A DNA stretch of 64,000 bases from Salinarimonas sp. (GTDB lineage: Bacteria > Pseudomonadota > Alphaproteobacteria > Rhizobiales > Beijerinckiaceae). Shown here one piece after another: positions 43,917 through 64,000 of this stretch (its first letter is position 1; each line of letters begins with the position of its first letter). A program made the position numbers and the translations under genes. The notes under the pieces were generated by a model. That model did not search any database, had not been told where the DNA came from, and saw only the letters and a program-made list of their open reading frames with translations. The DNA lies in the NCBI RefSeq assembly GCF_040111675.1, contig NZ_CP157794.1:4694444-4758443 (forward strand), written 5' to 3'.

Positions 43917-43943
43917 AGACGCGGACGGATCTGGGCGATCGCC

Positions 43944-44648: not shown

Positions 44649-44654
44649 CGTCGA

Positions 44655-44676
44655 CCTTTCGTCCACAAGCAAAATA
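44655..44676 (-). promoter_or_regulatory. candidate GntR-type operator (minus strand TATTTTGCTTGTGGACGAAAGG)
   Basis: It lies 7-28 nt upstream of the GntR ATG and matches the core of 43894-43916 at about 14/16 positions in inverted orientation. Confidence 0.4.
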
Positions 44677-44891
44677 CAGAAGGGACGGACGAGATCAACG
44701 CCGACACGCCGCCAGATGCGCCGCCCGCGCGTGCCGAGGCGCCGAGGGGGCCGCCGTGACGTCGGAGCCAGGACGACTCCGCAGCCGGGTCGAGCTGGCG
44801 GCTGCATTCTCGCTCAGAAGCATCGTCCAGCCAGTGGGCTCGCAGCGTGTTCCACCTGCCTGTGGCCCCCTCCGGATCGTCCCCGGACCGT

Positions 44892-45779
44892 TCACCCCGC
44901 CCGCGGCTCGCGCCAGCGATGCGCGCGGGCGGCCTCGACGAAGGCGGCGAGCGCGGGGGCGTGGCGCCGGCCGCGGCGGCTCGCGAGCGCGATCGTACGG
45001 GTCACCGCGGGGTCGATCAGGGCGCGGCGGTCGAGATCGGGGCGGGTCACCGCGAATTCCGGCATGAACGCGAAGCCGATCCCGCGCGCCACCATGGCCT
45101 GGACCCAGTCCTCCCGCTCGGAGCGGAAGCGCGCGTAGAGCGCGACCTCGCGGTCGCGGCAGACCGCCATCACCATCTCCCGCATCTCGCAGGCGAGGCG
45201 GTCGACGTAAGGAAGGCCGGAGAGCTCCTCGAGCCGGACCGCGTTGCCGCTCGGCCCCTCTCCCGGCGGGAAGACCGCGACGTAGCTCTCCTCGTAGAGC
45301 GGCTCGGCGTGGAAGGCCTCGCCGAGGCCCTCCAGCGGATTGAGGATCGCCGCGTCGATCTCGCCCGCGTCGAGGAGCGCGGCGAGCGCCTCCGGCGCGC
45401 CGTCGCGCACGGCGACCTCGACGCCCGGCGTCCTGCGGCCGAAGGCGGCGAGGAGCCCCGCGATGGCGGCGGGGCCGACCGTGGTCATCACGCCGAGCCG
45501 CAGGGGCACCTGGTTCAGGAGCCGGAAGTCGCGCGCCAGCGTCGCCACCGCCTCGGTCTCCTCGGAGATGCGCGTGAAATGCGGCAGGAGCCGCCGGCCG
45601 ACGTCGGTGAGGACGAGCTTGTGCCCGTCGCGATGGAACAAGGGCGCCTCGACCTGCGCCTCGAGCTTGCGGATCGCCGTCGTCAGCGCCGGCTGCGAGA
45701 CGCGGCACGCCTCGGCGGCACGGGTGAAGCTCAGCTCGCGCGCGGCGGCGAGAAAGTAGCGGACCTGGTGCATCTCCAT
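44892..45779 (-). CDS. LysR-family transcriptional regulator
   Basis: ORF 44892-45794. I prefer ATG 45779 (MEMHQVRYFLAAARELSFTRAAEACRVSQPALTTAIRKLE). It is divergent from the DUF4242 gene. Confidence 0.85.
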   Translation of the reverse strand: MEMHQVRYFLAAARELSFTRAAEACRVSQPALTTAIRKLEAQVEAPLFHRDGHKLVLTDVGRRLLPHFTRISEETEAVATLARDFRLLNQVPLRLGVMTTVGPAAIAGLLAAFGRRTPGVEVAVRDGAPEALAALLDAGEIDAAILNPLEGLGEAFHAEPLYEESYVAVFPPGEGPSGNAVRLEELSGLPYVDRLACEMREMVMAVCRDREVALYARFRSEREDWVQAMVARGIGFAFMPEFAVTRPDLDRRALIDPAVTRTIALASRRGRRHAPALAAFVEAARAHRWREPRAG

Positions 45780-45932
45780 CGGCGGGCCCTCCACTCGGGT
45801 CTTCCCTTGGGTGAGGATAAGCCGAGAGCGCGAAAGCCGCAGCTATGATTCGATAAACGCCGCGCCCTACCCCGCCGCGCGCGGACGTGGCCTGATCGGG
45901 ATGTCGAAACCCGAGACGGGAGGACCGAGGTC

Positions 45933-47859: not shown

Positions 47860-48411
47860 TCAGGGTTCGCTGGAGACGTCGCCGCCGCCGGCGCGCTGCT
47901 CGGCCTCCTCCTCCGGCGAGGCGACGCCGAAGCGGTGCTCGAACACGAGCTTGCCGCCGTGCCAGCCGGCGAAGCCCACGAGGACGAGCTGCACCCCGGA
48001 GAGCAGCAGACCCCAGGGCAGCACCGCGGCAACGGGATCGTCCATGCGGTGGGCCCAGCTCAGCGCCAGCACGCCGAGCAGCGTCATGGCGATCACGCCG
48101 TGCGACCAGGCGGCGGCGCGGTGGCGCGCGCCCGGCACGAGCATCATCTCGCCGAAGCCCGAGAGCGCCGCCGCGCAGCCCATCAGGAAGGCCGCGCCCG
48201 CGCCCCACAGGCCGGAGCGGGCGAAGAACGGGTCGAGCGTCCACCAATAGGCCGCGTCCGAGCCCGCGACCCAGAACGCCCCGGCGATCGGGAAGGCGAC
48301 CAGCATGGCGTGGATCGGGTGCCCGAACAGGGCGACGCGGCTGTCGAGATCGGACAGCGAATCGGGCTTGCCCAGGGTGGTGGTGACGACGTTCGTCCGG
48401 TCGGCGCGCAT
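47860..48411 (-). CDS. DUF2231-family membrane protein
   Basis: ATG 48411 after AAGGAGA, within ORF 47860-48606. Sequence: MRADRTNVVTTTLGKPDSLSDLDSRVALFGHPIHAMLVAFPIAG... with 4 TM segments. Confidence 0.75.
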   Translation of the reverse strand: MRADRTNVVTTTLGKPDSLSDLDSRVALFGHPIHAMLVAFPIAGAFWVAGSDAAYWWTLDPFFARSGLWGAGAAFLMGCAAALSGFGEMMLVPGARHRAAAWSHGVIAMTLLGVLALSWAHRMDDPVAAVLPWGLLLSGVQLVLVGFAGWHGGKLVFEHRFGVASPEEEAEQRAGGGDVSSEP

Positions 48412-48540
48412 CGGGTCTCCTTTCTCGGGCTCGCCGCCCTCGGCGCGGCGGCGGCGACGGTCTCGGGCTGCGCCGGGCCGCTCTCGACGCTCGACCCGGC
48501 GGGGCCTGCGGCGGAGCGCGTCGCGACCCTGTGGTGGATC

Positions 48541-49143
48541 ATGCTCGCCGGTGCGACGCTGATCCTGCTGGGCGTGTGCGCGCTCGCGCTCGTCCCCTTC
48601 CTTCAAGCCCGGCGGAGCGATGCGGTTTCACGGCGCGCCCCGCGCGACGGCGTCTGGCTCTTCGGCGGCGGCCTCGCGTTTCCCCTCGCGACGCTCCTCG
48701 CGCTGATGCTCTACGCCTTCGTGCTGGACCCCATCGACGACGCCGCGCGCACCGGCGCCGCGCCGCTGCGCGTCGAGGCGGTGGCGCGGCAATGGGACTG
48801 GCGCTTCGTCCATCCGGACGCGCCCGGCGGGCCGCTCGAGACGGAAGGGCGCCTGCACGTCCCCGCCGGCCGGCCGGTCGAGGTCGCGATCACGAGCGAG
48901 GACGTGATCCATTCGTTCTGGGTGCCGCGCCTCGCGGGCAAGCGCGACGCGATCCCGGGGCGGGTGAACACGATCACGATCCTCGCCGAGCGCCCCGGCG
49001 TCTACGGCGGGATCTGCGCCGAGTTCTGCGGCTACGGCCATGCCGGCATGCGCTTCGAGGTCGTCGTCCACGAGGCGAGCGCCTATCGCGGCGTGATGGC
49101 CAGCCTCGCGGCCGACCCGCGGACACGGGAGGCGCGGCGATGA
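48541..49143 (+). CDS. coxB: cytochrome c oxidase subunit II (CuA domain)
   Basis: Last part of ORF 47269-49143. CuA ligands are present (DVIHSFWVP...CAEFCGYGHAGM). 48541 is the first ATG, but conserved-looking N-terminal sequence lies upstream without a start codon (see findings). Confidence 0.75.
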   Translation: MLAGATLILLGVCALALVPFLQARRSDAVSRRAPRDGVWLFGGGLAFPLATLLALMLYAFVLDPIDDAARTGAAPLRVEAVARQWDWRFVHPDAPGGPLETEGRLHVPAGRPVEVAITSEDVIHSFWVPRLAGKRDAIPGRVNTITILAERPGVYGGICAEFCGYGHAGMRFEVVVHEASAYRGVMASLAADPRTREARR

Positions 49144-51665
49144 ACGACCCCGTCGTCGCCGCCCGCCGCTCCAGGGCGATCCGCCTGCATCGCGGCCTCT
49201 CCGCGATCTGGGACACGCCGCCTGGCCTCCCGCGCCTCGCGGCGGTGAACCACACCATCGTCGGGCGGCGCTTCATGCTCACGGCGCTCGCCTTCTTCGC
49301 CGCGGCGGGCCTGCTGGCGATGCTGATCCGCACCCAGCTCGCCGTTCCGACGAACGACTTCCTGGGACCCGACGCCTACAACCAGATCGTCACGGTGCAC
49401 GGCACGGTGATGATGTTCCTGTTCGCCATCCCCTTCATCGAGGGGCTGGCGATCTACCTCCTGCCGAAGCTGCTCGGCGCGCGGGACCTCGCCTTCCCGC
49501 GCCTATCGGCCTTCGGCTACTGGTGCTACCTGATCGGCGGCACGACCGTGCTCGGCTCCATCGCCTTCGGCGCCGCGCCCGACGGCGGCTGGTTCATGTA
49601 CGCGCCGCTCTCGACGAAGCCCTACTCGCCCGGCATCGGCGCGGACGTCTGGCTGCTCGGCATCACCTTCGTCGAGGTCTCCGCCATCGCGGCGGCGGTG
49701 GAGATCGCGGTGACGATCCTGAAGGTGCGCGCGCCGGGCATGTCGCTGTCGCGCATGCCGATCCTCGCCTGGTACCTCCTCGTCACGGCGATCATGATCC
49801 TCGGGGGCTTCCCGCCGCTGATCCTCGGCTCGATCCTGCTGGAGACCGAGCGCGCCTTCGGATGGCCGTTCTTCTCGCCCGAACGCGGGGGCGATCCGCT
49901 GCTGTGGCAGCACCTGTTCTGGCTGTTCGGCCACCCGGAGGTCTACATCATCTTCGTGCCCGCGGCCGGCGTGATCTCGACCGTGCTCCCCGTCTTCGCC
50001 CGCCGGCCGATCGTGGGATATTCCTGGGTCGTCGCCGCCGTGGTGGCGCTCGGCTTCCTGTCCTTCGGGCTGTGGGTGCACCACATGTTCGCCACCGGGC
50101 TGCCGCGGCTCTCGCTGGGCTTCTTCTCCGCCGCCTCGCTGCTCGTGACGGTGCCCACCGCCGTGCAGATCTTCGCCTGGCTGGCGACGCTCGCGAAGGG
50201 CCGCCCGGTCCTGTCGCTGCCGATGCTCTACATCCTCGGCTTCTTCTTCGTCTTCGTCGCCGGCGGGCTCACCGGGGTGATGGTGGCGATCGTGCCGTTC
50301 GACGAGCAGGTGCACGACACGCATTTCGTCGTCGCGCACCTGCACTACGTCCTCATCGGCGGCTTCGTCCTGCCGGCCATCGCGGGCGTCTACTATTGGC
50401 TGCCGCAGATCTCCGGTCGGGTGCCGGTCTTCGGCCTGGGCAAGACCGCGTTCTGGCTGATCTTCGCCGGCTTCAATCTCACCTTCCTCGTCATGCACTG
50501 GACGGGGCTCCTCGGCATGCCCCGGCGCGTCTTCACCTACGAGGAGGGGCTCGGCTGGCATCTGCCGAACCTGATCTCGTCCTTCGGCGCCTTCCTGCTC
50601 ACCGCGGGCTTCGCCCTCGTCGCCCTCGACCTCTTCCTGCAGCTGCGCCACGGCAAGTCGTTCCGGCGCAATCCTTGGGGGGCGGGCACGCTGGAATGGG
50701 CGATGCCCACGCCCCCTGCGCCCTACAATTTCGCGAGCCTGCCGCACGTCTCCGATCGCGACCCGCTCCACGCCGAGCCCGCCCTGCCCGAATGCCTCGC
50801 CGCGGGCGAAGGCTATCTCGGACGCGTTCACGAGGGCCGCATGGAGACCCTCGTCGTCTCGATGGTGGAGGGGAAGCCCGAGCAGATCCTCCTCCTGCCG
50901 AACCAGGACTACACGCCGCTCTGGACGGCGCTCTCCCTCGCGGTCTTCTTCGGCGCCATGCTGGCGGGGCTCTACTGGCTCGCCCCGGCGGGGCTCGTGC
51001 TCACCCTCGTCTTCGCCTGGCGCTGGGCGGCGAGCGGGGCGATGCGGGACGATCCGCCGATCGAGGACGCGGGCCGCGGCGTTTCCCTGCCGCTCCACCT
51101 CGCCGCGCCGCGCCCGCCGGCCTGGTGGGGAATGGTGTTCCTGCTCCTCGCCGACGCGATCCTGTTCGGCTCCCTCGCCTTCGGCGCGATCTACCTCGCG
51201 ACCTTCGCGCCCGGCTGGCCGGCGACCGCGCCCTGGGAGCCGGCCTCGGCCGCGGCGCTCGCCGCCGCGATCGCGCTGGCGCTCGCGGGGCTCGCGGGCC
51301 CTGCGGCGATGGGCGCCAACCGTCGCGCCGGGATCGCCCGCGGCGCGATGCGGGACGCGCTCCTCGCGCTCTGCGCCGCGGGAAGCCTCGGCGCCCTCGC
51401 CGCGCTCGCCTGGCTCGCCTGGGCTCTCGACCCGACGGCGCACGCCCACGGCGCGGTGGCCGGCGCGCTCCTCGCCTATGCGGGCTTTCACGCGCTGATC
51501 GGGCTCCTCACGAGCGCCTTCGCCCTGCGCGGGAGCCTCGCCGGCCTCGTCTCCGACGTCCGCCGCACGCCGGTCGAGGTCGCCGCGATGTGGCAGGCCT
51601 ATACGGCCGCGACGGGGCTTCTCGCGCTCGTCCTCGCCCTCTACGCGCCGGAGGCGCTGCGATGA
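49140..51665 (+). CDS. ctaD: cytochrome c oxidase subunit I fused to a subunit III-like C-terminal domain
   Basis: ATG 49140 (ATGA overlap) within ORF 48531-51665. 841 aa. Heme-copper motifs are present (WFFGHPEVYI-like LFWLFGHPEVYIIF, HHMF, HDTHFVVAHLHYV), followed by ~280 aa of additional TM helices. Confidence 0.9.
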   Translation: MNDPVVAARRSRAIRLHRGLSAIWDTPPGLPRLAAVNHTIVGRRFMLTALAFFAAAGLLAMLIRTQLAVPTNDFLGPDAYNQIVTVHGTVMMFLFAIPFIEGLAIYLLPKLLGARDLAFPRLSAFGYWCYLIGGTTVLGSIAFGAAPDGGWFMYAPLSTKPYSPGIGADVWLLGITFVEVSAIAAAVEIAVTILKVRAPGMSLSRMPILAWYLLVTAIMILGGFPPLILGSILLETERAFGWPFFSPERGGDPLLWQHLFWLFGHPEVYIIFVPAAGVISTVLPVFARRPIVGYSWVVAAVVALGFLSFGLWVHHMFATGLPRLSLGFFSAASLLVTVPTAVQIFAWLATLAKGRPVLSLPMLYILGFFFVFVAGGLTGVMVAIVPFDEQVHDTHFVVAHLHYVLIGGFVLPAIAGVYYWLPQISGRVPVFGLGKTAFWLIFAGFNLTFLVMHWTGLLGMPRRVFTYEEGLGWHLPNLISSFGAFLLTAGFALVALDLFLQLRHGKSFRRNPWGAGTLEWAMPTPPAPYNFASLPHVSDRDPLHAEPALPECLAAGEGYLGRVHEGRMETLVVSMVEGKPEQILLLPNQDYTPLWTALSLAVFFGAMLAGLYWLAPAGLVLTLVFAWRWAASGAMRDDPPIEDAGRGVSLPLHLAAPRPPAWWGMVFLLLADAILFGSLAFGAIYLATFAPGWPATAPWEPASAAALAAAIALALAGLAGPAAMGANRRAGIARGAMRDALLALCAAGSLGALAALAWLAWALDPTAHAHGAVAGALLAYAGFHALIGLLTSAFALRGSLAGLVSDVRRTPVEVAAMWQAYTAATGLLALVLALYAPEALR

Positions 51666-52641: not shown

Positions 52642-53577
52642 TCACGCCGAGGCGGGCTTGCGGGCGCGCCGGAGCGAGACGGTCCCGTAGACGGTGAACG
52701 CCGTGAGCAGCAGCACGCAGACGAGGCTCGCCTGCGAGACGGCGAGGCGCGGATCGGCGAGCTGGGCGAGATAGGTGAAGATCAGGTTCGTCGAGAACAG
52801 GAGCGAGACCGTCATCGGCTCGGTGCGCGAGATGCCGATCTGCAGGAGGTAGATGCCGATGAACACGCCTATGACGGTGAGCACCGCGATGGTGCCGATG
52901 GTCGCGGGCGTGTAGGGCGACCACGAGCCCTCGCTCGCCAGGATCGCGAAGGCGACGACATTGAGCAGCGTGAACCGCACCGTCATGATGTCGGCCGAGG
53001 AGAAGTCCCGCTCCGTCAGCGCCTTGGTCACGTAGGTGTTGGTGCTCACCCCCAGCGCGGTGAGGAGCGCCGCGACGACGCCGACGGCGACGGTCGTCCA
53101 GGGCAGCGCGCCCAGCCCGCTGAGGCCCTGCGCGGAGACGGCGACCAGGGCGAGGACCGAGAGGGCGCAGCCCACCGCCGCGACGAGCTCCTGGCGGAGG
53201 ATCGGCGCGTTCGGCCGCAGCCGCGGCGCGAGGGCGAGGGTGATCAGCGGGATCGCGCCGACGATGAGGCCGTTGACCACCGCCGGCTCCAGCGCATCGA
53301 GGGCGTAGAGCACGGCGAGCCAGCTCAGCGCCGTCGTCACGTTGATGGCCAGGACGTGCCGCCAGGCGCCGCGCGCCTTCGCGAGGAGCGCGCCGCGCTC
53401 GCGATGGGTGGCGAGGTAGACGATCTGGGCCAGCACGAAGCAGTTCACCGCGATGAAGGCCGGCGACAGCGTCACCAGGACGTAGCCCTCGAAAACCGAC
53501 TTCGCGGCGTTCATCAACGTGTAGCCGAGCACGTAGACGGCGCCGGGCACCACCCAGGCCGCCTCACGCCGCGACAT
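52642..53577 (-). CDS. EamA/DMT-family transporter (putative exporter)
   Basis: ATG 53577 within ORF 52642-53646. 311 aa with about 10 TM segments in two EamA-like halves. It overlaps the upstream ATP-grasp stop by 14 nt. Confidence 0.85.
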   Translation of the reverse strand: MSRREAAWVVPGAVYVLGYTLMNAAKSVFEGYVLVTLSPAFIAVNCFVLAQIVYLATHRERGALLAKARGAWRHVLAINVTTALSWLAVLYALDALEPAVVNGLIVGAIPLITLALAPRLRPNAPILRQELVAAVGCALSVLALVAVSAQGLSGLGALPWTTVAVGVVAALLTALGVSTNTYVTKALTERDFSSADIMTVRFTLLNVVAFAILASEGSWSPYTPATIGTIAVLTVIGVFIGIYLLQIGISRTEPMTVSLLFSTNLIFTYLAQLADPRLAVSQASLVCVLLLTAFTVYGTVSLRRARKPASA

Positions 53578-54805
53578 CGTAGAAGCTCTCCCGGTCGAGA
53601 TGCCGGATCGTGCGGGAATCGCGCACGACGGCGGCCGCGTCCGCATGAGCGAGCACGATCATCATCGGGTAGGTCACGTCGTTGATCGTCACCTTCAGGT
53701 CTCCGCCCGGACGCACGATCTCGACGATCTCGCGGAAGGTCTCCAGCGCCTGGACCGCGGGCAGGCCCGGATAGCCGACGAGCCGCCCCGCGCGGCGGCT
53801 GATCAAGGCGGTGGAGGAGACGGTGGCCTCGAGCCGGTAGGGCGTCCCGGCCTCGGCGCGGAAGCGCTCCGGCTCGGCGTAGGCGGTGGCGATCCAGTCG
53901 ATCTGGCTCCGGCCGAGGCCCGTCCGCGCGATGCGCGAGAGCGGGCCGCCCACCAGCCGGGCGCCGAGCTCGACGAGGCGCGGGCCTTCGCGGGTCATCC
54001 GGATCTCGAGATGGGCGGGGCTGTCCGTGACCCCGAGCGCGTCGAGGCAGGCGCGGGCGTAGGGCGCGAGCCGGTCCTGCACCTCGCCCGTCGCGGGCAG
54101 GAGGATGGCCGAATCGAGCAGGTTGAGCACGCCGTTGGCGGCGACGTGCGTCGTCAGCCAGATCTCGGCGATGTGGTGCACGCCGCCACGGCTGACCGTG
54201 TTGACGTAGTACTCGTGGCCGTCGAGGTAGGATTGTGCGACGACCGCCTCGATCAGGTCGCCGTAGAAGCTCGTTCGTCCCACCACCGCGTCGAAGGCCG
54301 CGCCGGCTTGCTGCGGCGTGTCGCAGAAGGAGACGCCGTCGTTGAGCGCGGAATTGAGCGGCTTCACCACGATGCGCGCGCCCTGCTCGCGGGCGAAGGC
54401 TTCGACCTCGGCGCGGCTGCGGCACAGGCGCTGCGCCGCCGCCGGGACGCCGGCCTCGTGCAGCGCCTCGATCATCGCGTACTTGTCGCGCCGCAGCGCC
54501 GTCGTCGTCGGGTCGTTGGTGGGCGCGCCGTGCGCGAAGGCGAGCGCCTCGGCGAGCTCGACGCCGTACTCGGATCCGGCGATCACCTGCTCGACCCCGA
54601 GCGCCCGCAGCCGCGCCGCGGTGGCGGCGAGATCGCCCTCGTGCACCACGTTCTCGACGAAGTCGCCGGGCCGGAAGGTCGGCGCGTGCATGGCGAGGAG
54701 CGTCGGCCGGCTCTGCACGTGTACGCAGGCCGCGCCGCGCCCGGCGAGCGCCGGAGCGATCTGGTTCGCCGACGAATAGGCGTTGACGATGGCGATGCGT
54801 CTCAT
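53564..54805 (-). CDS. ATP-grasp ligase (L-amino-acid-ligase-like)
   Basis: ATG 54805 (ATGA overlap) within ORF 53564-55735. 413 aa: MRRIAIVNAYSSANQIAPAL...RDKYAMIEAL...IVVKPLNSALNDGV...QSYLDGHEYYVNTV...HLEIRMTREGPRLVELGARL. Confidence 0.8.
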   Translation of the reverse strand: MRRIAIVNAYSSANQIAPALAGRGAACVHVQSRPTLLAMHAPTFRPGDFVENVVHEGDLAATAARLRALGVEQVIAGSEYGVELAEALAFAHGAPTNDPTTTALRRDKYAMIEALHEAGVPAAAQRLCRSRAEVEAFAREQGARIVVKPLNSALNDGVSFCDTPQQAGAAFDAVVGRTSFYGDLIEAVVAQSYLDGHEYYVNTVSRGGVHHIAEIWLTTHVAANGVLNLLDSAILLPATGEVQDRLAPYARACLDALGVTDSPAHLEIRMTREGPRLVELGARLVGGPLSRIARTGLGRSQIDWIATAYAEPERFRAEAGTPYRLEATVSSTALISRRAGRLVGYPGLPAVQALETFREIVEIVRPGGDLKVTINDVTYPMMIVLAHADAAAVVRDSRTIRHLDRESFYDVAA

Positions 54806-55905
54806 CGGGCGGCCTCCGCGAGGGGTACGAGGTCGTCGGCGACCGGTCCGACGACGAAGGCGCCGCGCCGGTTGATGGCGTCGAGGCGCGCGATGTCGGC
54901 CTCGAGCACCTCGAGCGCGGCGTGCGCGAGGAAGACCGTGGCGCCGTAGCTGTAGCCGTCGAAGGTGGGCGCCGCCCGCGCGCCGAGGGCGGGCTCCTGG
55001 TAGAGGTAGCGATAGGTCGGCAGGCGCCGGATCTCGGGCAGGTCCGGCAGGTCGAGGAGCACGCCTTCCTCGTCGACGACGAAGGAATAGTCGGCGACGA
55101 AGCCCTCCGGCTCCGGCGTGTCGGGGAGCGCGGTCTCGAAGCCGTGCGCGCGGGCGCGCTCGAACAGCGCGCGCTGCCCCGGCTGCCCGCCGAGGCGGCA
55201 CAGCGCCGGCAGCGGCTCCGTCGCGAGACGCGGCGCGGCCTTGACCAGCCGCGCCCCGCCGGCTTGCGTGAGCACGAGCTCGAAATGCACGGGCCCGGCG
55301 AGGATGCCCAAGGCCCGCGCGAGGCGCCCGAGCCGCTCCGTGAGATCGGCCGGCAGCGCCGCGCGCGGCAGGTTGACGACGCTCGCGAGAATGTCGCGGC
55401 AGCCGATCGGCATCAGGATGCAGCGCCAGACGTCGGCGAGGGCGAGGCGCCCGCCCGACACGACGCCGTTGACGAAGATCGGCTGCCCGGGCTCGTGGAC
55501 GTGCGCGTGCAACGCCCCGCAGCGCGCGAGATAGGCGCGCTCGGCCGGGCTCGGCGGCCGGTCCGGGCCGATCACGAGGGCGGAGCCCTTGGACGAGGCG
55601 GAGAGCCGCGGGCGCACGACGAGCGTGCGCTCCGGCGCGGACGGCACGTCCTCGGCCCGGGCCTGGTCGACGGCCTCGAAGGCGAGGTCCGGCTCGACCT
55701 TCCGGACGAGCGCGTGCTGCAGGCTCTTGTCGCACAAGGCGGCCGGGTCGGCCTGCGGATTGAAGAAGCCGGCGCGGGCGTTGCGGGAGGCGGCCTCGAT
55801 CACCTGGGCGTCGGTCTCGGCCAGGGTGAACGGGCCGCGCGGCGTCGCGACCCGCACGAGGCCGGGCGCGAGCGTCTCGACGGGCGGAGCGATCCAGTCC
55901 GTCAC
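54802..55905 (-). CDS. second, divergent ATP-grasp-like ligase
   Basis: GTG 55905 (GTGA overlap) within ORF 54802-56463. 367 aa. ATP-grasp C-terminal pattern is present (GPVHFELVLTQAGGARLVKAAPRL). Confidence 0.7.
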   Translation of the reverse strand: MTDWIAPPVETLAPGLVRVATPRGPFTLAETDAQVIEAASRNARAGFFNPQADPAALCDKSLQHALVRKVEPDLAFEAVDQARAEDVPSAPERTLVVRPRLSASSKGSALVIGPDRPPSPAERAYLARCGALHAHVHEPGQPIFVNGVVSGGRLALADVWRCILMPIGCRDILASVVNLPRAALPADLTERLGRLARALGILAGPVHFELVLTQAGGARLVKAAPRLATEPLPALCRLGGQPGQRALFERARAHGFETALPDTPEPEGFVADYSFVVDEEGVLLDLPDLPEIRRLPTYRYLYQEPALGARAAPTFDGYSYGATVFLAHAALEVLEADIARLDAINRRGAFVVGPVADDLVPLAEAAR

Positions 55906-56651
55906 AGCCCGAGCTCCGCGCGCGTCTGGCCCTCGAAATGGATGCGCCGCACGCCGCCGTCGCGCGGCTGCGTCAGCGCGAAGCGCACGGCGTTCCAGAT
56001 CGCCGGCTCGCCCAGCAGCGACCCGGGCGCCCGCGGCGCGTACCAGTCCGGCGACAGCGGCTCGACGTTGTCGAAGTCCGGCGGGAACAGGCCCGTGACG
56101 CGGATGCCCTCCGGCGCGAGCCGCGCGCCGAGCACGTCGCAGAAGCCGGCCACGCCGTGCTTGGCGGCGTAGAAGGCCGGGTGCGCGTTCGAGCGCAGGT
56201 AGCCCGGCTCGCCGCAGACCGAGACCATGGCGAGGATGTCCGCCTGCCCGGCCCGTCGCAGCGCGGGCAGGAGGCGCTTCGTGAGGATCATGGCGCCGGT
56301 CAGGCTGGAGCTCACCGTGTCCGCGATGTCGGCGTCGTCGACCTCGTCGAGCTCGCCTTCGAGCCAGCGTGCGGCGTTCAGGACGAGGACGTCCACGCCG
56401 GAGCCGTCGCCAGCCACGGCCTCGGCGAAGGCCGAGACGGATTCGGGATCGGAGACGTCGCAAGCGTGCGCCCGCGCCCTGCCGCCACGGTCGCGGATCG
56501 TCATGGCCACGGCCTCGGCGGCGTCGCGGTCGCGCGCCGAGAGCTCGACGGCGCCCCCCTCGGCCGCGAACATGATCGCGAGCGTGCGCCCGAAGTCGCG
56601 GCCCGCTCCGGTGATGACGATGCGCTTGCCGGCGAAGGGTGCGGCGCTCAT
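55902..56651 (-). CDS. SDR-family oxidoreductase
   Basis: ATG 56651 (ATGA overlap) within ORF 55902-58271. 249 aa with ITGAGRDFG and YAAKHG motifs. Confidence 0.85.
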   Translation of the reverse strand: MSAAPFAGKRIVITGAGRDFGRTLAIMFAAEGGAVELSARDRDAAEAVAMTIRDRGGRARAHACDVSDPESVSAFAEAVAGDGSGVDVLVLNAARWLEGELDEVDDADIADTVSSSLTGAMILTKRLLPALRRAGQADILAMVSVCGEPGYLRSNAHPAFYAAKHGVAGFCDVLGARLAPEGIRVTGLFPPDFDNVEPLSPDWYAPRAPGSLLGEPAIWNAVRFALTQPRDGGVRRIHFEGQTRAELGL

Positions 56652-57415
56652 GCGGCGGTCTCCTCGTGCGTTGCGGCGGACTGGTCCGGGACGGTGTGGC
56701 TGCCCGACGCGTTCTCGGCGTAGAGCGTGGTGGCGATGTAGGCGGCGGCGCCGGGTCCCCAGCGCTCCGGGGAGACGTAGTCGTCGTGCTCGTCGGGCAG
56801 GCACTCCGCCAGCATGCGGGTGTTGATGCCGCCGCCGGGATCGAGCGCCACGGCGCGCACGCCTTCGGGCAGGTCGTGCCGGAGCGTGTCGACGATCCCC
56901 TCGACCGCGAACTTGCTCGCGCAATAGGGGCCGAGCCCCCAATCGGCGCTGCGTCCCCAGCCCGAGCTCGTGGCGACGAACAGCCCCGACCCGGCGGCGA
57001 TCATCGCCGGCAGGAAGGCCCGCGCCGTGATCGCCACGCCGAGGACGTTGACGTCGAGCACGCGACGCCATTGCGCCGTCTCGATCTCCCATACCGGCCG
57101 GCGCGGGTTGATCACCCCCGCATTGGCGACGACGAGGTCCGGCGCGCCCTCCCGGCAGGCCTCCTCGGCGAAGCGCGCCATCGCATCCTCGTCGGTGACG
57201 GAGGCGACGTGCACGAGGTGGCCCGGGCCGAGCGCGTCGGCGACCGCGCGCAGGCGCGCGGCGTCGGTGGCGCAGCCGGCGACGACGGCGCCGCGCGCGG
57301 CGAAGGCCCGCGCCAGGGCGAGCCCGAGGCCCTCCGAGACGCCGGTGATCACGACCCTGCGCGGCTCGGCCGGCGCAGGGTCTCGGGTGGCGGACGCAGT
57401 GGACGCGGTCGACAT
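56648..57415 (-). CDS. SDR-family oxidoreductase
   Basis: 255-aa ORF with an RBS GGGAGA and the motifs VITGVSEGLG, NAGV and YCASKFA. Confidence 0.85.
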   Translation of the reverse strand: MSTASTASATRDPAPAEPRRVVITGVSEGLGLALARAFAARGAVVAGCATDAARLRAVADALGPGHLVHVASVTDEDAMARFAEEACREGAPDLVVANAGVINPRRPVWEIETAQWRRVLDVNVLGVAITARAFLPAMIAAGSGLFVATSSGWGRSADWGLGPYCASKFAVEGIVDTLRHDLPEGVRAVALDPGGGINTRMLAECLPDEHDDYVSPERWGPGAAAYIATTLYAENASGSHTVPDQSAATHEETAA

Positions 57416-57436
57416 GCGATCTCCCGTGGCTGGCTT

Positions 57437-58210
57437 TCAGGTCCGCGCGGGGGCGAGCCGCGCGATCGGGTCGAGGCTGCGGGCCGCGTAGGCCGGCGGG
57501 CCGTTGGCGGGCCAGGGGGACAGGACCGTCTCCGCCGACACGAGCGCGAGGCCCGAGACGAAGACGAACGGCACGCCGAGCGCGCGCGCCGCGTCCCTGT
57601 CGGCCACGGCGTCGCCGAACAGGACGGCCTCGTCCGGGCGCAGCCCGCGCTCGGCGAGGAGCGCGGCCATGGCCTCGGCCTTCGGCGTCGGCGTGCCGAT
57701 CACCGCGTCGAACGCGCCGGCGAAGCCGGCGGCGTCGAGGGCGCGCGCCGCTTCGGCCCCGACACCACCGGTGACGACGGCGCAGGGTCGGTGCGCCGCG
57801 CGCAGCATGCCGACGAGAGCCCGCGCGCCCGGCGCGGGCGCCGAGAGCGGGTAGCGCTCGGCGAGGAGCGCGGCGTAGGCCGCGGTGCGCGTCCGCACGA
57901 AATCCTCCGCATCCTCGGGTGCGCCACCCAGGATGCGGTGAAAGGTGGCGAAATGCTCGGCCCGGCCGCGGCCGAAATTGGCCGCGAAGGTGGCGAGGCA
58001 GGCCTCGCGCTTCTCCGCCGGCGCGTCCGCGAGCACGTCCGCCACCGCATCGAGCTTGACCCGGTTGGCGTCGAGCAGCACGCCGTCGCAGTCGAAGAAG
58101 GCCATCGCCGCCGCGCGGGCGATCTCGCCCACGCTGCGCGGCTCGCTGCCGGGCTCGAGGTCGGGAGCCCCGGAGAGCGGCTGGCGGCCGGCGGCCGCGA
58201 GCGCGCTCAC
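57437..58210 (-). CDS. HAD-superfamily hydrolase
   Basis: 257-aa ORF (GTG start, GTGA overlap with the upstream stop). Motif I is FFDCDGVLLD and the late motif is FGDAVADRDAA. An internal ATG at 58105 is an alternative start. Confidence 0.75.
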   Translation of the reverse strand: MSALAAAGRQPLSGAPDLEPGSEPRSVGEIARAAAMAFFDCDGVLLDANRVKLDAVADVLADAPAEKREACLATFAANFGRGRAEHFATFHRILGGAPEDAEDFVRTRTAAYAALLAERYPLSAPAPGARALVGMLRAAHRPCAVVTGGVGAEAARALDAAGFAGAFDAVIGTPTPKAEAMAALLAERGLRPDEAVLFGDAVADRDAARALGVPFVFVSGLALVSAETVLSPWPANGPPAYAARSLDPIARLAPART

Positions 58211-59247
58211 GACGCCCTCCGCGCGGACTCGAGGAGACCGGCGTCGTAGCGGCCCTTGGGGGACGACGCAACGAGCCGGTCGAGAACGGCGAAGCGATCG
58301 AGATCGGTCATGGCGGCGTCCTCGGCGAGCTTCTGGGCGTAGGTCGGATGCAGGCCGACGCGGGCCTGCCAGCGGTAGAGCGGCGTCGCGCCCCAGCGGC
58401 TCTCGGCGCGCAGAGGCTCGACGTGGCGGGCGAGGAAGCGATCGCAGGCGGCGAGCGCCTCCGGCGTCGGCGCGGAATCGAGAAGAAGCCGCACCGTCTC
58501 GGTCGCCGCGTTGCCGGCGCCGCGGCCCAGCCCGCCCATGGTCGCGTCCACCATCCGAGCGCCCGCCTCGATCGCCGCCTGCGTGTTGGCGACGGCGAGG
58601 CCGATATTGTCGTGGGCATGGAAGCCGAGCGGGGTGGCGAGGGCGGCGCCGACGGTCTCGAACAGGCGGGTCACGTCCGCCGGCCGCATGCGCCCGAAGC
58701 TGTCGGCGAAGTACAGCGCCTGGATCGGCGCCTCGCCGAGGCGCCCGGGCAGCTCGGCGGCGAGCTGCTCGGGCGGCAGGTCGGCCGCCTGCATCAGGTT
58801 GACGATCGGGGTGATTCCGCGCGCCGCGAGCGCCGTCGCGACCGCGGCCGCGCCCGCGAGCCCGTCCATGCGGGTCGCGACGCGCACGGTCTCGATCGTG
58901 ACCGGCGCCTCGGAGAGGCGCTCGGCCACGCGGTCCGCCGCCTCCTCGGGCGCGACCCGCGCGGCGTCGGCCGCATCGACCATGACGGCCGCCGAGACCC
59001 GAGGGGCCTCGGCGAGGAGCGCGCGCTGCGCCAGCGTGAGGGAGCGCGGCAGGTCCGCGTAGTCGCCCGACGGCGCAGCCGGGGTCGGCGCCGCCACCCG
59101 CAGGTAGCCGAGCTCGACACGGTCGACGCCGAGCGCGGCGCAGACCGTGAGCCAGTCCGCCACGAACCCGTCCGAGAAGCGCCAGTCCGTCTGGTAGCCG
59201 CCGTCGCGCAGGGTGCAGTCGAGGAGGAGCGGGCGCGGGCGGGTCAT
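58207..59247 (-). CDS. HMGL-like / DRE-TIM metallolyase (pyruvate-carboxyltransferase-type aldolase)
   Basis: 346-aa ORF with an ATGA overlap and the motifs LLDCTLRDGG and GFHAHDNIGLAVANTQAAIEAGARMVDATMGGLGRGAGNA. Confidence 0.8.
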   Translation of the reverse strand: MTRPRPLLLDCTLRDGGYQTDWRFSDGFVADWLTVCAALGVDRVELGYLRVAAPTPAAPSGDYADLPRSLTLAQRALLAEAPRVSAAVMVDAADAARVAPEEAADRVAERLSEAPVTIETVRVATRMDGLAGAAAVATALAARGITPIVNLMQAADLPPEQLAAELPGRLGEAPIQALYFADSFGRMRPADVTRLFETVGAALATPLGFHAHDNIGLAVANTQAAIEAGARMVDATMGGLGRGAGNAATETVRLLLDSAPTPEALAACDRFLARHVEPLRAESRWGATPLYRWQARVGLHPTYAQKLAEDAAMTDLDRFAVLDRLVASSPKGRYDAGLLESARRAS

Positions 59248-59627
59248 TCGGCCGCCTCCCGCGCGCCGGACCCCGCGGGGCGGCTCCAGTTGAAGATCGG
59301 GTCCAGGCGATACCAGTTGAGCGCCGTGTCGTTGCCCTCGATGCGGCGCAGCAGCTCGCCGTGCATCAGGTCGTCCCAGCGCTGGACGACGGGGTGCATC
59401 GCCAGCGCGCGGGTGAAGTCCCGCTGCGGGTCGAAGCCCTCCTCGGCCTCGACCTGCATGAACAGCGTGCGCGGCGGCAGGAGGTGGATCGACATGGCGC
59501 GCAGGCCGATGGCGTCGAGCGCGCCGCCCGGGCCGGAGATCTCGGGGGGGACGGCGCGATGGGCCTCGCGATAGCGCGCGAGCGCCTCGTCGGACACGAC
59601 CTCGATGGCGAAACCGATGCGAATCAT
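59244..59627 (-). CDS. L-rhamnose mutarotase (RhaM/DUF718) family protein
   Basis: ATG 59627 (ATGA overlap) within ORF 59244-59801. 127 aa: MIRIGFAIEVVSDEALARYREAHRAVPPEI...LFMQVEAEEGFD...HPVVQRWDDLM. Confidence 0.7.
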   Translation of the reverse strand: MIRIGFAIEVVSDEALARYREAHRAVPPEISGPGGALDAIGLRAMSIHLLPPRTLFMQVEAEEGFDPQRDFTRALAMHPVVQRWDDLMHGELLRRIEGNDTALNWYRLDPIFNWSRPAGSGAREAAE

Positions 59628-60562
59628 GCTGCCTCTCCCATGTCGGCGGCGGTGGTCACGGTGGCGAGCAGCCGGTCGTAGACGGTCTCGACCTCGGCGA
59701 GCGTCTCCGGGTCGACGTGGTAGTCGAGCGGCGGGCGGATGTCGGTGCGCTCGATGAGGCCACGGCGATGCAGGAGGTGCTTCGAGATCCCGAGATAGCA
59801 ATCTATGCTATTCATCATGTGACACATCAAGTACGAAAGCGGGTAGGCGATCTCGCGCGCCTCGCGCTCGCGCCCGGCCTCGAGAAGCCGCCAGAGGCGA
59901 ACCGTGATCTCGGCGATCTCGGTGGCGGGGATGACGCCGGCGAGGCCGCGGCGATAGGTGTCGGCGAGCATCATTCCGCCGTCGCCCTCGAAGATCCGCG
60001 CCTTGCCGCCGGTGGCCTCGCGCAGGAGCGAGACGCGCGGCGGGGTGGGCGCCGATTCGGGCTTGAACTGCACCTTCTCCGGCCCGTAGGCGGCTAACAG
60101 ACGCGCCTGCACCGCGATGGAGAGCGGCCGCTTGGCCAGGCTCTTGGCGTGGTGGACGAGGATCGGCAGGCCGACGGAGTCGATGACCGCCGCGAAGTAG
60201 CGGTACATTTCCTCGTCATCGAGGGCCATGATCGAGGGATGCATCACGAGGAGCGCGTCGCAGCCCGCCTTCTCGGCCTGGCGCGAGAACTCGATCGCCT
60301 CGCGAATGCTTTCTCCGCCCGTGCTCATCACCGAGACGCCGCGCGCGCCGCAGCTCTCGGCGAGCAGCTCCGCGACCCGGAAGCGCTCCGCGGTCGTCAG
60401 GCGCGAGACCTCCGAGACCTGGCCGACGACGACCCCGCTGCAGCCCACGTCGAGCATGTGCCCGACCTGCCTGCGAAAATCGGCCTCGTGGACGTCGCCG
60501 CGTTCGTCGTAGGGCATGATGACGACGGGAAGAACTCCCGCGAGAGCTTTTGCGCTGGTCAT
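59624..60562 (-). CDS. DapA/DHDPS/NAL-family class I aldolase
   Basis: 312-aa ORF with an RBS AAGGAA. Family pattern is present, with the Schiff-base Lys in VQFKPES. It is the first gene of the minus-strand operon. Confidence 0.85.
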   Translation of the reverse strand: MTSAKALAGVLPVVIMPYDERGDVHEADFRRQVGHMLDVGCSGVVVGQVSEVSRLTTAERFRVAELLAESCGARGVSVMSTGGESIREAIEFSRQAEKAGCDALLVMHPSIMALDDEEMYRYFAAVIDSVGLPILVHHAKSLAKRPLSIAVQARLLAAYGPEKVQFKPESAPTPPRVSLLREATGGKARIFEGDGGMMLADTYRRGLAGVIPATEIAEITVRLWRLLEAGREREAREIAYPLSYLMCHMMNSIDCYLGISKHLLHRRGLIERTDIRPPLDYHVDPETLAEVETVYDRLLATVTTAADMGEAA

Positions 60563-60700: not shown

Positions 60701-62080
60701 ATGACCGGGAACGTAGATGCTGCGCCGCACGGGCGCGGCCCAACTCCGGAGGCGCGAAACGTGCGGACGGCTCCCACTGTGCTCGATCTCGTCGGCGTCG
60801 GCTTCGGCCCGGCGAACCTCGCCCTGGCACTGGCGCTGGAAGAAGACGCTTCTTCGAGCCGCAGCGCCTATTCCAGACTCTTCCTCGAAGCGAAGAGAGA
60901 CTTCTCGTGGCACAAAGGGATGCTGCTCGACGGCGCCACGATGCAGATCTCCTTCCTGAAGGATCTCGTCACGCAACGCAACCCGCAGAGCCCTCACAGC
61001 TTCCTGTGCTATCTCAAGGACCGCGGCCGGCTGGCCGACTTCCTGAACCTCAAGGACTTCTTTCCGACCCGGCTCGAGTTCCACGACTATTTCAAATGGT
61101 GCTCGGAGGCCGTCGGTCCCGTGGTCCGCTACAACCAGAAAGTCCTCTCCGTGGATCTGGCGACGCCGGGCGGCGCGGCGGTCGCCACGCTCGCCGTGAC
61201 GGCGCGCGGGGCCGACGGAACGGAGCGTACGCATTTCACCCGCGCCGTGTCGCTGGCGATGGGTCTCGCGCCGCGCCTGCCGCTCGGGCTCGCGGCCGGG
61301 CCCCGTGTCTGGCATACGAGCGATCTCCTTCCGCGGACCACCGCCCTCGCGCCGTCGGCGAGCCCGCGCTTCGCCGTGGTCGGCGCCGGCCAGAGCGCGG
61401 CCGAGGCGGTCGAGCACCTGCTCGCGCGCTTCCCGGATGCACGCGTGCACACGATCATGAGCCGGCTCGGTTTCACGCCCTCCGACGATACGCCCTTCGT
61501 CAACCGGGTGTTCGATCCGACCATGGTCGACAGCTATCACGCCATGTCGCCGGAGCTGCGGTCGCACGTCCGCTCGACGCACGCCAACACCAATTACAGC
61601 GTCGTCGACCAGGACCTGATCGCCGCGCTCTACAAGCGCTGGTACGCCGATCGGGTGGCGGGGCGCGAGCGTCTCGTGCTGGAGCCGCTCTCGCGCCTGA
61701 CCGACGTCGAGGAGACCGCGGACGGGCTGCGGCTCGGCCTCGCGGCGGCGGCCGGGCCCGGAACCCGCGCGCTCGAGGTCGACTACCTCGTCTGCGCCAC
61801 CGGCTACGACCCCGTCTCGCCCGACGCGGTGCTCTCGCCCGCCTTGAGCGCGCTCGTCGAGCGCGACGCCTCCGGCGCCCCGATCATCGAGCGCGACTAC
61901 CGCCTGCGCACCCGCGCGCCGCTCCTCGCCCCGATCTACGTCCAGGGCGACTGCGAGGCGAGCCACGGCCTCTCGGCGACGCTGCTGTCCAACCTCGCGC
62001 CGCGAGCCGGGGAGATCCGCGACAGCCTCGCGGCGTACCTGGCCGGGCTCCAGGAGGAGGCGCGCTATGCCAGCGCCTGA
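60701..62080 (+). CDS. lysine/ornithine N-monooxygenase (SidA/IucD/PvdA family flavoprotein)
   Basis: 459-aa ORF with FAD motif GVGFGPANLALA, NADPH motif VVGAGQSAAE and the family pattern ...MQISFLKDLVT...DYLVCATGY. Confidence 0.9.
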   Translation: MTGNVDAAPHGRGPTPEARNVRTAPTVLDLVGVGFGPANLALALALEEDASSSRSAYSRLFLEAKRDFSWHKGMLLDGATMQISFLKDLVTQRNPQSPHSFLCYLKDRGRLADFLNLKDFFPTRLEFHDYFKWCSEAVGPVVRYNQKVLSVDLATPGGAAVATLAVTARGADGTERTHFTRAVSLAMGLAPRLPLGLAAGPRVWHTSDLLPRTTALAPSASPRFAVVGAGQSAAEAVEHLLARFPDARVHTIMSRLGFTPSDDTPFVNRVFDPTMVDSYHAMSPELRSHVRSTHANTNYSVVDQDLIAALYKRWYADRVAGRERLVLEPLSRLTDVEETADGLRLGLAAAAGPGTRALEVDYLVCATGYDPVSPDAVLSPALSALVERDASGAPIIERDYRLRTRAPLLAPIYVQGDCEASHGLSATLLSNLAPRAGEIRDSLAAYLAGLQEEARYASA

Positions 62081-63146
62081 GCGCGAGACGGTGGTGATCG
62101 GCGCCGGCGTGATCGGCGCCGCCGCGGCGCTCGCCCTGCGCCGGGCGGGACGCGCCGTCGCGCTGCTCGACGCCGATCGGGTCGCCGCCGGTGCGAGCGG
62201 CTGGTCGGGAGGCGTGGCGCGCGTGTTCCACCTCGACGCCGAGGAGGCCGCCCGCGCCGCCTACGGCCTGCCGATCCTGCGCGACCTCGCACGCGCCATC
62301 GGCGTGGGCGTGCCCTTCCACGAGACGGGCTACCTCTACTTCCCGAAGCCGCAGGACCGGGAGGCGGCGCTCGCCGCCGCGCGCGCCCTCGCGCCGGAGC
62401 ACGGAACGGAATTCGTCGGCGCCGGCCAGCTCGCGACCCTCTATCCCGGGCTCGCCCTGTCGGGCGAGGGGGCGATCCACGAGCCGCGGGCCGGCTTCGC
62501 CGATCCCCGCGCCGTCGCTCTCGCCTATGCGGAGGCCTTCGTGCGCGCCGGCGGCCGGTCGCTCGAGGGCGTCCGCGTCGGGGCGCTCGCGCCCGACGCC
62601 GGCGGCGTGCGGCTCGAGACGACGCTCGGCCCGATCCACGCCGACCAGGTGGTGCTCGCAGCCGGCTACGCGACGCCCGGCATGCTCGACGCGCTCGGCG
62701 TCGCCCACGACCTGTTCTCCCGTTCCATCCAAGTGACGCTGTTCGAGCCGCCGCATCGGATCGTCGCGCCCGCCTTCACGGACGAGGAGCTCGACGTCTA
62801 CGGCAAGCCCGATCCGGCGAGCGGAGGCCTCTACGTCGGCGCGCCGACCACGGCCGAGAGCCGCGGCGAGATCGCCGCAGAGCCCGTGGACGCCGACCAC
62901 GTCGGGCGGACGATGGCGGCGGCCCGCGACCGCTTCGGCTGGATGGACGCCGCGCGCCCGCGCGGCGGCCTGCGCCACGCCGACTGCTACAGCGCGCGCG
63001 GACGCGGCGAGGTGTTCCGCCTGCCGGGCGCGCTGTCGCGCATCGTCGTCGCCGCCGGCTTCTCCGGCGGAGGCTTCAAGATGGCGCCGTGGGCCGGCGA
63101 AGCCGCCGCGGCGCTCGTCGCGGAGCGCGCCGCCGACGCCGCCTGA
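62067..63146 (+). CDS. FAD-dependent oxidoreductase (DAO / glycine-oxidase-like)
   Basis: 359-aa ORF with an RBS AGGAGGAGG, the N-terminal motif VVIGAGVIGAAAALAL and C-terminal GFSGGGFKMAP. Confidence 0.85.
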   Translation: MPAPERETVVIGAGVIGAAAALALRRAGRAVALLDADRVAAGASGWSGGVARVFHLDAEEAARAAYGLPILRDLARAIGVGVPFHETGYLYFPKPQDREAALAAARALAPEHGTEFVGAGQLATLYPGLALSGEGAIHEPRAGFADPRAVALAYAEAFVRAGGRSLEGVRVGALAPDAGGVRLETTLGPIHADQVVLAAGYATPGMLDALGVAHDLFSRSIQVTLFEPPHRIVAPAFTDEELDVYGKPDPASGGLYVGAPTTAESRGEIAAEPVDADHVGRTMAAARDRFGWMDAARPRGGLRHADCYSARGRGEVFRLPGALSRIVVAAGFSGGGFKMAPWAGEAAAALVAERAADAA

Positions 63147-63233
63147 CCCCGATCCCCCGCTTCCCGCTTCTCGATCGTCTCGACCCACGCGCGGCCGGCC
63201 GCGCGCCGTCAGGCCAGCTCTCGGAGACCAGAC

Positions 63234-64000
63234 ATGCAGATCTTCGACCTGTTCGATTTCACGGGCGAAGCCTACGACCTCAAGTGCCGCCCCTTCGCGC
63301 CGAAGGGCGCCCCCGCGGGCGCCATGGTCTGCGAGGTCGCGCCCGGATCGGTCTCGCGCATCCACAATCACGCGGAGGCCGAGGCCTTCCTCGTGCTGGA
63401 GGGCGCGGGCCACGTCACCGACGGGACCGAGCGCCGGCCCATCGCCGCCGGGCAGGGCGTGCTGTTCCCGCCCTTCGTCAATCACGTGATCGAGAACGCC
63501 GACCCCGACAAGCCGCTGCGGATGATCTCGATCTACTGGATGGGCGACCTCGCCGCCGACGACGCCGCCGCGAAGGCCGGCGCGCCGCGCGACACGCTCG
63601 TCTTCTCGACGCCGCCGACCCCCAACGGCGATCTTCATCTCGGGCATCTCTCCGGGCCCTATCTCGCCGCCGACGTGCTGCGGCGCGCGCTCGCCCAGCG
63701 CGGCGCCGCGGCGCTCCACGTCACCGGGCGCGACGACAACCAGACCTACGTCCTGCTCAAGGCCTCGCGCGAGGGCTCGACGCCGACGGACGTCGCCGAC
63801 CGGTTCGCGCAGGCGATTCGCGGCACGCTCGCCGCCGCCGACATCCCCCTCGACGGCTTCATCGAGCCCGACCGCGACGGCCTCTACGCGGCTTTCGTCG
63901 CCGACCTCGTGGCGCGGCTCTCCGCCAACGGCTTCGTCGAGGCGCGCCGCGCCCCGGTCCTCGTCGACGACGCGGGGCGCGTGGTGCACGAGGCCTATGT
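63234..64000 (+). CDS. cupin domain fused to a methionyl-tRNA-synthetase-like class I catalytic domain (hydrazine synthetase-like); truncated by the window end
   Basis: Not in the ORF track (no stop in the window). ATG 63234 follows GGAGA. Cupin motifs are SRIHNHAEAEAFLVLEG and GVLFPPFVNHVIEN. The class I aaRS core follows: FSTPPTPNGDLHLGHLSGPYLAADV (HLGH at 63636-63647). Confidence 0.85.
   Translation, partial: MQIFDLFDFTGEAYDLKCRPFAPKGAPAGAMVCEVAPGSVSRIHNHAEAEAFLVLEGAGHVTDGTERRPIAAGQGVLFPPFVNHVIENADPDKPLRMISIYWMGDLAADDAAAKAGAPRDTLVFSTPPTPNGDLHLGHLSGPYLAADVLRRALAQRGAAALHVTGRDDNQTYVLLKASREGSTPTDVADRFAQAIRGTLAAADIPLDGFIEPDRDGLYAAFVADLVARLSANGFVEARRAPVLVDDAGRVVHEAY

Follow-up and report, generated by a model that had tools for sequence, protein, structure and literature searches.

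Here we describe a gene at the right-hand edge of a 64,000-nucleotide stretch of a Salinarimonas sp. genome (contig NZ_CP157794.1, forward-strand positions 4,694,444 to 4,758,443; GC content 72.8%, in keeping with the genus), which we call the window and number from its first letter. The gene starts at position 63234 on the plus strand, and its 676 amino acid product joins an N-terminal cupin to a domain resembling methionyl-tRNA synthetase (MetRS). Judging from its sequence, its product is very probably a two-domain hydrazine synthetase belonging to the family that includes Spb40, Tri28, AzsN, PyrN and Por11. Our analysis establishes the architecture of the protein, its catalytic and binding motifs, its structural similarity and its gene context. 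The cupin/MetRS-like combination is already a characterised enzyme family, first described in 2018 and estimated at more than 1,200 members (PMC13149037), and is thus much less novel than a preliminary description of this DNA, made from the letters alone, had supposed.

The open reading frame (ORF) begins with an ATG, has an in-frame stop upstream at 63144, and can be read for 255 codons before the window ends. The preliminary description had proposed an extension of the contig. Logan contig SRR35362199_143 (L001), retrieved by exact-sequence lookup of the upstream oxidase protein, agrees with the window at 11,934 of 11,934 overlapping bases (100%) and supplies the complete gene, which ends at L001:13198. 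The exact 676 amino acid sequence is present in NCBI as WP_349369152.1 / XBQ07907.1 from Salinarimonas sp., under the name “class I tRNA ligase family protein.” Codons 1–105 have a GC content at third positions (GC3) of 0.95, equal to that of the remainder of the gene, and because the two match we take the cupin part to be coding. An internal start at M97 or M103, with the cupin left untranslated and the protein serving as the sole MetRS of the genome, had been named beforehand as the finding that would speak against this reading. The internal start is contradicted by the GC3 value, by the GGAG at 63223–63226 and by the invariant cupin ligands, which are conserved in the homologues.

The metal-binding residues and the HIGH-motif variant listed in the preliminary description (H44-N-H46-x3-E50, N83-H84, and HLGH at amino acids 135–138, nucleotides 63636–63647) are all present. 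Pfam Cupin_2 matches amino acids 32–101 (E-value 4e-14, visible part). Across 125 didomain homologues H44, H46, E50 and H84 vary little or not at all, and in an alignment of 59 sequences they are invariant. True MetRS sequences begin to align at about residue 119–122, as had been predicted. From there on the protein is synthetase-like: Pfam tRNA-synt_1g covers amino acids 125–240 in the visible part (E-value 3e-15) and 125–508 in the full protein (E-value 1e-66). The KMSKS loop, whose inspection had also been proposed, reads KFSTS in the completed gene (amino acids 452–456), the second lysine being missing. In a MAFFT alignment of 129 homologous sequences, KFSTS is found in 125, and HLGH, K452, N131, D414 and N415 are invariant or nearly so. 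We also identify, by reading the sequence, one C-x2-C...C-x2-C zinc knuckle (C260, C263, C272, C275). The C-terminal region of approximately 130 residues is helical and forms a diverged helical bundle, which superposes on those of MetRS and of PyrN-C (the MetRS-like part of PyrN, the hydrazine synthetase of pyrazomycin biosynthesis).

Both sequence and predicted fold place the protein nearest to PyrN-C. The best matches in the PDB by sequence are the entries 9L8V, 9VQ4, 9VQJ and 9VR2 (E-value 4e-64), all of which are PyrN-C (bioRxiv 10.1101/2025.08.22.671884); the best true MetRS is that of P. abyssi (5e-50), and the E. coli enzyme scores approximately 3e-29. We built an AlphaFold model from 59 aligned sequences, using the cluster representative P0001 (97% identity to the synthetase). 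The model is confident (predicted local distance difference test (pLDDT) score 93.3; predicted template modelling score 0.89) and shows a beta-barrel at amino acids 11–102. Its confidence drops only in the linker, at amino acids 101–120 (pLDDT 66–68), and the same has been described for PyrN. In a Foldseek search, PyrN-C occupies ranks 1–3 (template modelling (TM) score 0.90–0.91; root-mean-square deviation (rmsd) 2.3–2.8 Å), while MetRS structures reach TM scores of 0.74–0.86 with an rmsd of 3.8–6.2 Å.

Proposed chemistry and partner genes

In this family a cupin of approximately 100 amino acids precedes a MetRS-like domain of approximately 550 amino acids, and the two also occur as separate proteins. 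In the MetRS-like domain a free amino acid is activated as its adenylate and then handed, with no tRNA involved, to the oxygen atom of an N-hydroxylated amino acid; the zinc cupin turns the unstable ester into an N–N bond (PMC8664883). ATP-dependent, tRNA-independent formation of the O-aminoacyl-hydroxylamine and its Zn-dependent rearrangement have been demonstrated for PyrN, RHS1 and Spb40 only; work on PyrN showed both that tRNA is dispensable and how the two domains share the task (PMC8664883). The PyrN residues probed by mutagenesis are H50, H52, E56 and H90 of the cupin (PMC8664883) and K458 of 458-KFSTG-462. They correspond to H44, H46, E50, H84 and K452 of the Salinarimonas protein, with identical spacing.

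We infer the chemistry of the locus, its substrates and its final product by homology to these systems. The flavin N-monooxygenase encoded upstream would hydroxylate L-ornithine or L-lysine at the side-chain amine. The MetRS-like domain, through HLGH and KFSTS, would adenylate glycine with ATP and then load the glycyl group onto the oxygen of the N-hydroxyl group rather than onto tRNA; the result would be an unstable O-glycyl-N-hydroxy-amino acid ester. The Zn-cupin (H44, H46, E50, H84) would rearrange this ester in a redox-neutral step to N-(carboxymethylamino)-ornithine or -lysine. A sarcosine-oxidase-like FAD enzyme would then cut one C–N bond oxidatively and free a hydrazine building block, which would be hydrazinoacetic acid if the cut falls on the diamino-acid side, as with Spb39 and AzsS. 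The rest of the cassette would build an N–N-containing metabolite from this block.

Two genes directly upstream fit these roles (Table 1). The first is predicted to encode the N-monooxygenase (Spb38/Tri26/Por9-type) that supplies the N-hydroxy-amino acid. Its best PDB match carries the name “L-lysine N6-monooxygenase MbtG” (2.5e-121); KtzI, which acts on ornithine, comes second (1.6e-101), and this ranking does not decide between the two amino acids. The hydroxylamine carrier of this locus may be ornithine, because Por9 and Por11 of the syntenic por cluster are tied to N5-hydroxy-ornithine. The start of this gene is ambiguous: an ATG lies at 60701, while the gene caller places the start at 60761. 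The second gene encodes an FAD oxidase (Spb39/Tri27/AzsS-type) whose best PDB matches are sarcosine oxidases, and we predict from its family that it cleaves a C–N bond of the hydrazine conjugate and frees the building block. In Spb39-type systems such cleavage leads to hydrazinoacetic acid (PMC12376268, PMC11705231). The two genes share 14 nucleotides (62067–62080), an overlap that suggests translational coupling. We compared 38 related loci from species-representative genomes. An N-monooxygenase gene adjoins the synthetase homologue in 35 of them, the three exceptions being short or truncated contigs, and the oxidase gene lies between the two in 15/38.

We predict the amino acid substrate from eight pocket positions read from the 129-sequence alignment: T126, P127, D167, Q170, W368, M371, N415 and H419, or TPDQWMNH. 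The code (Matsuda 2024, quoted in PMC12376268) was defined on Spb40 (T128, P129, D169, Q172, W371, M374, N412, H416). It is TPDQWMNH for the glycine-using Spb40 and AzsN, SADQWYGH for the threonine-using ThzN, and SFVQALNR for the glutamate-using PyrN. Because TPDQWMNH equals the published glycine code, glycine is the predicted acyl substrate. The homologue from Pseudomonas orientalis DSM 17489 carries TPDQWMNH as well.

Weighing the alternatives

Could the gene be the organism's genuine methionyl-tRNA synthetase, with a cupin appended or left untranslated? Its catalytic core is of MetRS type (tRNA-synt_1g), the C-terminal bundle superposes on MetRS structures, and homologues are labelled “methionyl-tRNA synthetase” in some databases. 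The window holds no other MetRS gene and no tRNA gene, though at 64 kb it covers only approximately 1% of the 5.35-Mb genome and so tells us nothing about the whole. Against this stand the NCBIfam metG models, all of which match below their curated cut-offs: the best, NF008859, scores 253.9 bits (cut-off 553), TIGR00398 scores 202.1 bits (cut-off 336.35), and with the exception of the latter all seven stay under half their cut-offs. The Anticodon_3 match to the full protein is likewise sub-threshold (E-value 0.064; 13.6 bits, cut-off 23.5), KFSTS stands in place of KMSKS, and the nearest structure is that of a tRNA-independent enzyme. The GC3 of the cupin part is that of coding sequence, and its metal ligands are invariant. 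Finally, the gene sits in a biosynthetic cassette with an N-hydroxylase neighbour that recurs in most of the related loci, including those of approximately 6 Mb Pseudomonas genomes. We consider a housekeeping MetRS extremely improbable, and the earlier proposal of a non-housekeeping aminoacyl-tRNA synthetase paralogue is borne out by the metG scores, the KFSTS motif and the translated, conserved cupin. Very improbable, too, is a synthetase-like amide or ester ligase acting in the manner of MshC, without N–N chemistry and with the cupin as an independent oxygenase or isomerase. Class I synthetase paralogues with non-tRNA acceptors do exist, MshC itself gives weak matches, and cupins are functionally diverse. 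However, MshC-type models reach only an E-value of approximately 0.1, while the protein resembles PyrN-C specifically, and the KFST motif, the cupin ligands and the N-hydroxylase neighbour are all conserved.

Within the hydrazine synthetase reading, a further alternative is that the locus has no hydrazinoacetic acid pathway, either because the substrate is not glycine or because the oxidase cuts on the glycine side, in which case glyoxylate would be released and a side-chain hydrazine would stay on ornithine or lysine. Apy10 belongs to this oxidase family and cuts the C-alpha–N bond of the amino acid part; several members of the synthetase family have broadened specificity (Ser/Gly, Ala/Gly); and the por-type cassette is without a characterised product. 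We judge this alternative unlikely, though by no means negligible: the pocket code is that of the glycine users Spb40 and AzsN, the syntenic Por11 is reported with glycine, and the gene order N-monooxygenase, oxidase, synthetase is that of spb38–40 and tri26–28, which yield hydrazinoacetic acid. Several points weigh against the hydrazine synthetase, glycine and hydrazinoacetic acid assignments that we prefer. The role of the 676 amino acid protein is predicted by homology, and the identities are modest, reaching 32% in the structural alignment with PyrN-C and approximately 43% with the P. orientalis protein. TPDQWMNH is common to 116 of the 129 aligned homologues, and the code is empirical; it may partly mirror common descent instead of specificity. 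Evidence on the hydroxylamine partner is ambiguous: the N-monooxygenase has its best PDB match in an entry named as a lysine N6-monooxygenase, but ornithine is what is reported for the syntenic Por9. Oxidases of this family differ in regiochemistry, Apy10 acting on the amino acid side and Spb39 on the diamine side (PMC11705231). Moreover, the identity of the P. orientalis protein with Por11 is not confirmed by accession (current RefSeq WP_248842641.1; WP_057724816.1 for the same strain in the review PMC11705231).

The wider por-type cluster and its edges

Upstream of the hydrazine genes lies a divergent cassette of seven genes, and the features of the region are collected in Table 1. Gene calls are those of the Logan contig; upstream of approximately 50 kb we used Pfam matches on stop-to-stop ORFs.

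Table 1. Features of the hydrazine synthetase locus and its surroundings (window positions, or positions on contig L001 where so marked)
Feature	Position	Strand	Basis or remark
Shine-Dalgarno GGAG	63223..63226	+	7-nt spacer to ATG 63234; direct sequence reading
N-terminal zinc-type cupin domain, aa 1-104	63234..63545	+	Pfam Cupin_2; H44/H46/E50/H84; beta-barrel in model
Ala/Asp-rich inter-domain linker, aa 105-120	63546..63593	+	pLDDT dip; PyrN counterpart aa 111-126
First part of the MetRS-like class I adenylating domain (aa 121-255 within the window)	63594..64000	+	tRNA-synt_1g; whole domain to aa ~650
Pocket residues T126/P127	63609-63614	+	alignment
Pocket residue D167	63732-63734	+	alignment
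Pocket residue Q170	63741-63743	+	alignment
Lys/Orn N-monooxygenase	60701..62080	+	Pfam Lys_Orn_oxgnase, E 5e-100
FAD oxidase, DAO/sarcosine-oxidase type	62067..63146	+	Pfam DAO, E 4e-45
Divergent 7-gene cassette	54802..60562	-	Pfam; conserved with hydrazine genes
DHDPS-like aldolase	59624-60562	-	Pfam
RhaM-like	59244-59627	-	Pfam
HMGL-like aldolase	58207-59247	-	Pfam
HAD	57437-58210	-	Pfam
SDR	56648-57415	-	Pfam
SDR	55902-56651	-	Pfam
367-aa protein, no Pfam family	54802-55905	-	weak similarity to C-terminal part of ATP-grasp family model
Probable left cluster edge	52642..54805	-	Pfam, NCBIfam
DdaF-like ATP-grasp ligase	53564-54805	-	left edge
EamA exporter	52642-53577	-	left edge
PBP-like gene, 296 aa	L001:13209-14099	+	directly after synthetase gene, past window end
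4HBT thioesterase and type I PKS >1,900 aa (KS-AT-KR-DH...)	L001:15498-21080	-	~4-9 kb past window end
Proline-racemase family	38908-39990	-	hydroxyproline set
Aconitase X with swivel domain	40070-41845	-	hydroxyproline set
Second DHDPS-family gene	42864-43943	-	hydroxyproline set
GntR and LysR regulators	43944-45842		beside hydroxyproline set

All seven cassette genes are syntenic with the N-monooxygenase, oxidase, synthetase and PBP-like (periplasmic-binding-protein-like) genes in seven loci: those of a Saliniramus metagenome-assembled genome (L002), whose synthetase is 63% identical, P. entomophila (L005 and L007), Pantoea sp. Cy-639 (L009), P. orientalis DSM 17489 (L010), Xenorhabdus sp. 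BG5 (L011) and P. atagonensis (L032). The cassette and the hydrazine genes are thus conserved together across Alpha- and Gammaproteobacteria. The literature on Pseudomonas, Xenorhabdus, Pantoea, Erwinia and Salinarimonas yielded nothing relevant on the cassette product.

Directly after the synthetase gene lies the PBP-like gene. The similarity of its product to LivJ-type periplasmic amino-acid-binding proteins is confined to their N-terminal half (positions 2–157 of 343 in Peripla_BP_6; PDB match 3ip5, E-value 3e-12), and by eye the product shows no obvious signal peptide. A homologue directly follows the synthetase gene in 16 of the 38 related loci, including some that have no aldolase/SDR cassette, and the protein may be a fourth component of the hydrazine module. 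Farther on are a HAD gene, a 119 amino acid ORF, a 4HBT thioesterase and a large type I polyketide synthase (PKS). We find no counterparts of the thioesterase and PKS in the compared Saliniramus, Pseudomonas, Pantoea and Xenorhabdus loci; either this lineage has added them or they form a neighbouring cluster of their own. The DdaF-like ligase and the EamA exporter probably mark the left-hand limit of the cluster. Upstream of 52.1 kb the genes belong to primary metabolism (cytochrome oxidase, a regulator, hydroxyproline-catabolism genes).

It is possible, although we lean somewhat to doubt, that the cassette together with the DdaF-like ligase, the exporter, the thioesterase and the type I PKS makes a structurally new N–N metabolite, possibly from an ornithine-derived rather than a lysine-derived hydroxylamine carrier. 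A polyketide or peptide with a hydrazide or hydrazone linkage is one example of what such a compound may be. If this is true, a new N–N metabolite would come from a halophilic alphaproteobacterium.

Two observations concern the more distant part of the window. A probable hydroxyproline-catabolism set (38908–43943, minus strand) is apparently unrelated to the hydrazine cluster. A 1,092-codon stop-to-stop ORF (48387–51665, plus strand) matches cytochrome oxidase subunit I over amino acids 292–737 only. Probably its long N-terminal stretch is untranslated or the ORF merges neighbours, ORF calling being noisy at 73% GC.

Comparison with known systems

The locus illustrates how a tRNA synthetase fold has been recruited for small-molecule chemistry. 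Compared with MetG, the protein has the same class I Rossmann fold, an HxGH motif, the zinc knuckle of the connective-peptide (CP) domain and a helical C-terminal bundle. It differs in the N-terminal cupin, in KFSTS, in its biosynthetic operon and in failing the metG thresholds; the hydrazine synthetase family, moreover, works without tRNA. Annotation pipelines still label such genes “methionyl-tRNA synthetase” or “class I tRNA ligase family protein,” and their recognition aids both annotation and genome mining.

With PyrN-C the protein shares a Rossmann core with a CP insertion, the KFST-motif domain and the helical bundle. The residues that bind ATP and the hydroxylamine are kept (N131 = N143; D414/N415 = D420/N421; K452 = K458), HLGH corresponds to 147-HLGH-150, and KFSTS corresponds to 458-KFSTG-462. 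PyrN uses D-Glu, with the pocket SFVQALNR and the residues R390 and R425; here the pocket is TPDQWMNH, and R390 aligns with a glycine. PyrN-C also has two zinc clusters, where we identify one knuckle.

The actinomycete enzymes Spb40 (s56-p1), Tri28 (triacsins) and AzsN (azaserine) have the same cupin and MetRS-like domain and an identical pocket code. Spb38/39/40 and Tri26/27/28 show the gene order seen here, and AzsL/AzsS/AzsN represent the same set of functions. In contrast, their hydroxylamine is N6-hydroxylysine, whereas here ornithine is equally or more likely, and their downstream nonribosomal peptide synthetase, acyl carrier protein or triazene machinery is absent here. Enzymes of the AzsN type have an extra C-terminal carrier domain, which the 676 amino acid protein lacks.

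The closest parallel is the por cluster of P. orientalis DSM 17489. The review PMC11705231, which summarises Matsuda et al. (JACS 2022, doi 10.1021/jacs.2c05269), describes Por9 as an N-hydroxylase reported with N5-hydroxy-L-ornithine and Por11 as coupling N5-hydroxy-ornithine or N4-hydroxy-diaminobutyrate with glycine in vivo, and it lists the por product as unknown. The two loci share the didomain architecture, HLGH and KFSTS, the pocket code and 11 genes that are syntenic in the same relative order at 34–71% identity (tblastn): DHDPS-like, RhaM-like, HMGL-like, HAD, two SDRs, the 367 amino acid protein, N-monooxygenase, oxidase, synthetase and the truncated PBP-like gene. If one extra gene precedes the DHDPS-like gene in the P. 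orientalis locus, its N-monooxygenase is the 9th gene and its synthetase the 11th, which agrees with the Por numbering. Section 4.1.2.1 of the same review gives WP_057724699.1 as Apy10 from Streptomyces. This number directly follows that of Por9 from P. orientalis (WP_057724698.1), and the protein is probably the por oxidase (Por10), mislabelled.

The differences from por lie in the synthetases, only approximately 43% identical, in the host, here an alphaproteobacterium, and in the divergent orientation of the aldolase/SDR cassette. The DdaF-like ligase, EamA exporter, thioesterase and type I PKS are present only here among the por-type loci compared. The enzyme family itself is well described, from 2018 onward and with crystal structures in 2025, and the question now lies downstream, in the product of the por-type cassette, which spans Pseudomonas, Pantoea, Xenorhabdus, Saliniramus and this Salinarimonas. 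As a distant, GC-rich example with added ligase and PKS genes, the Salinarimonas locus could help to define that product.

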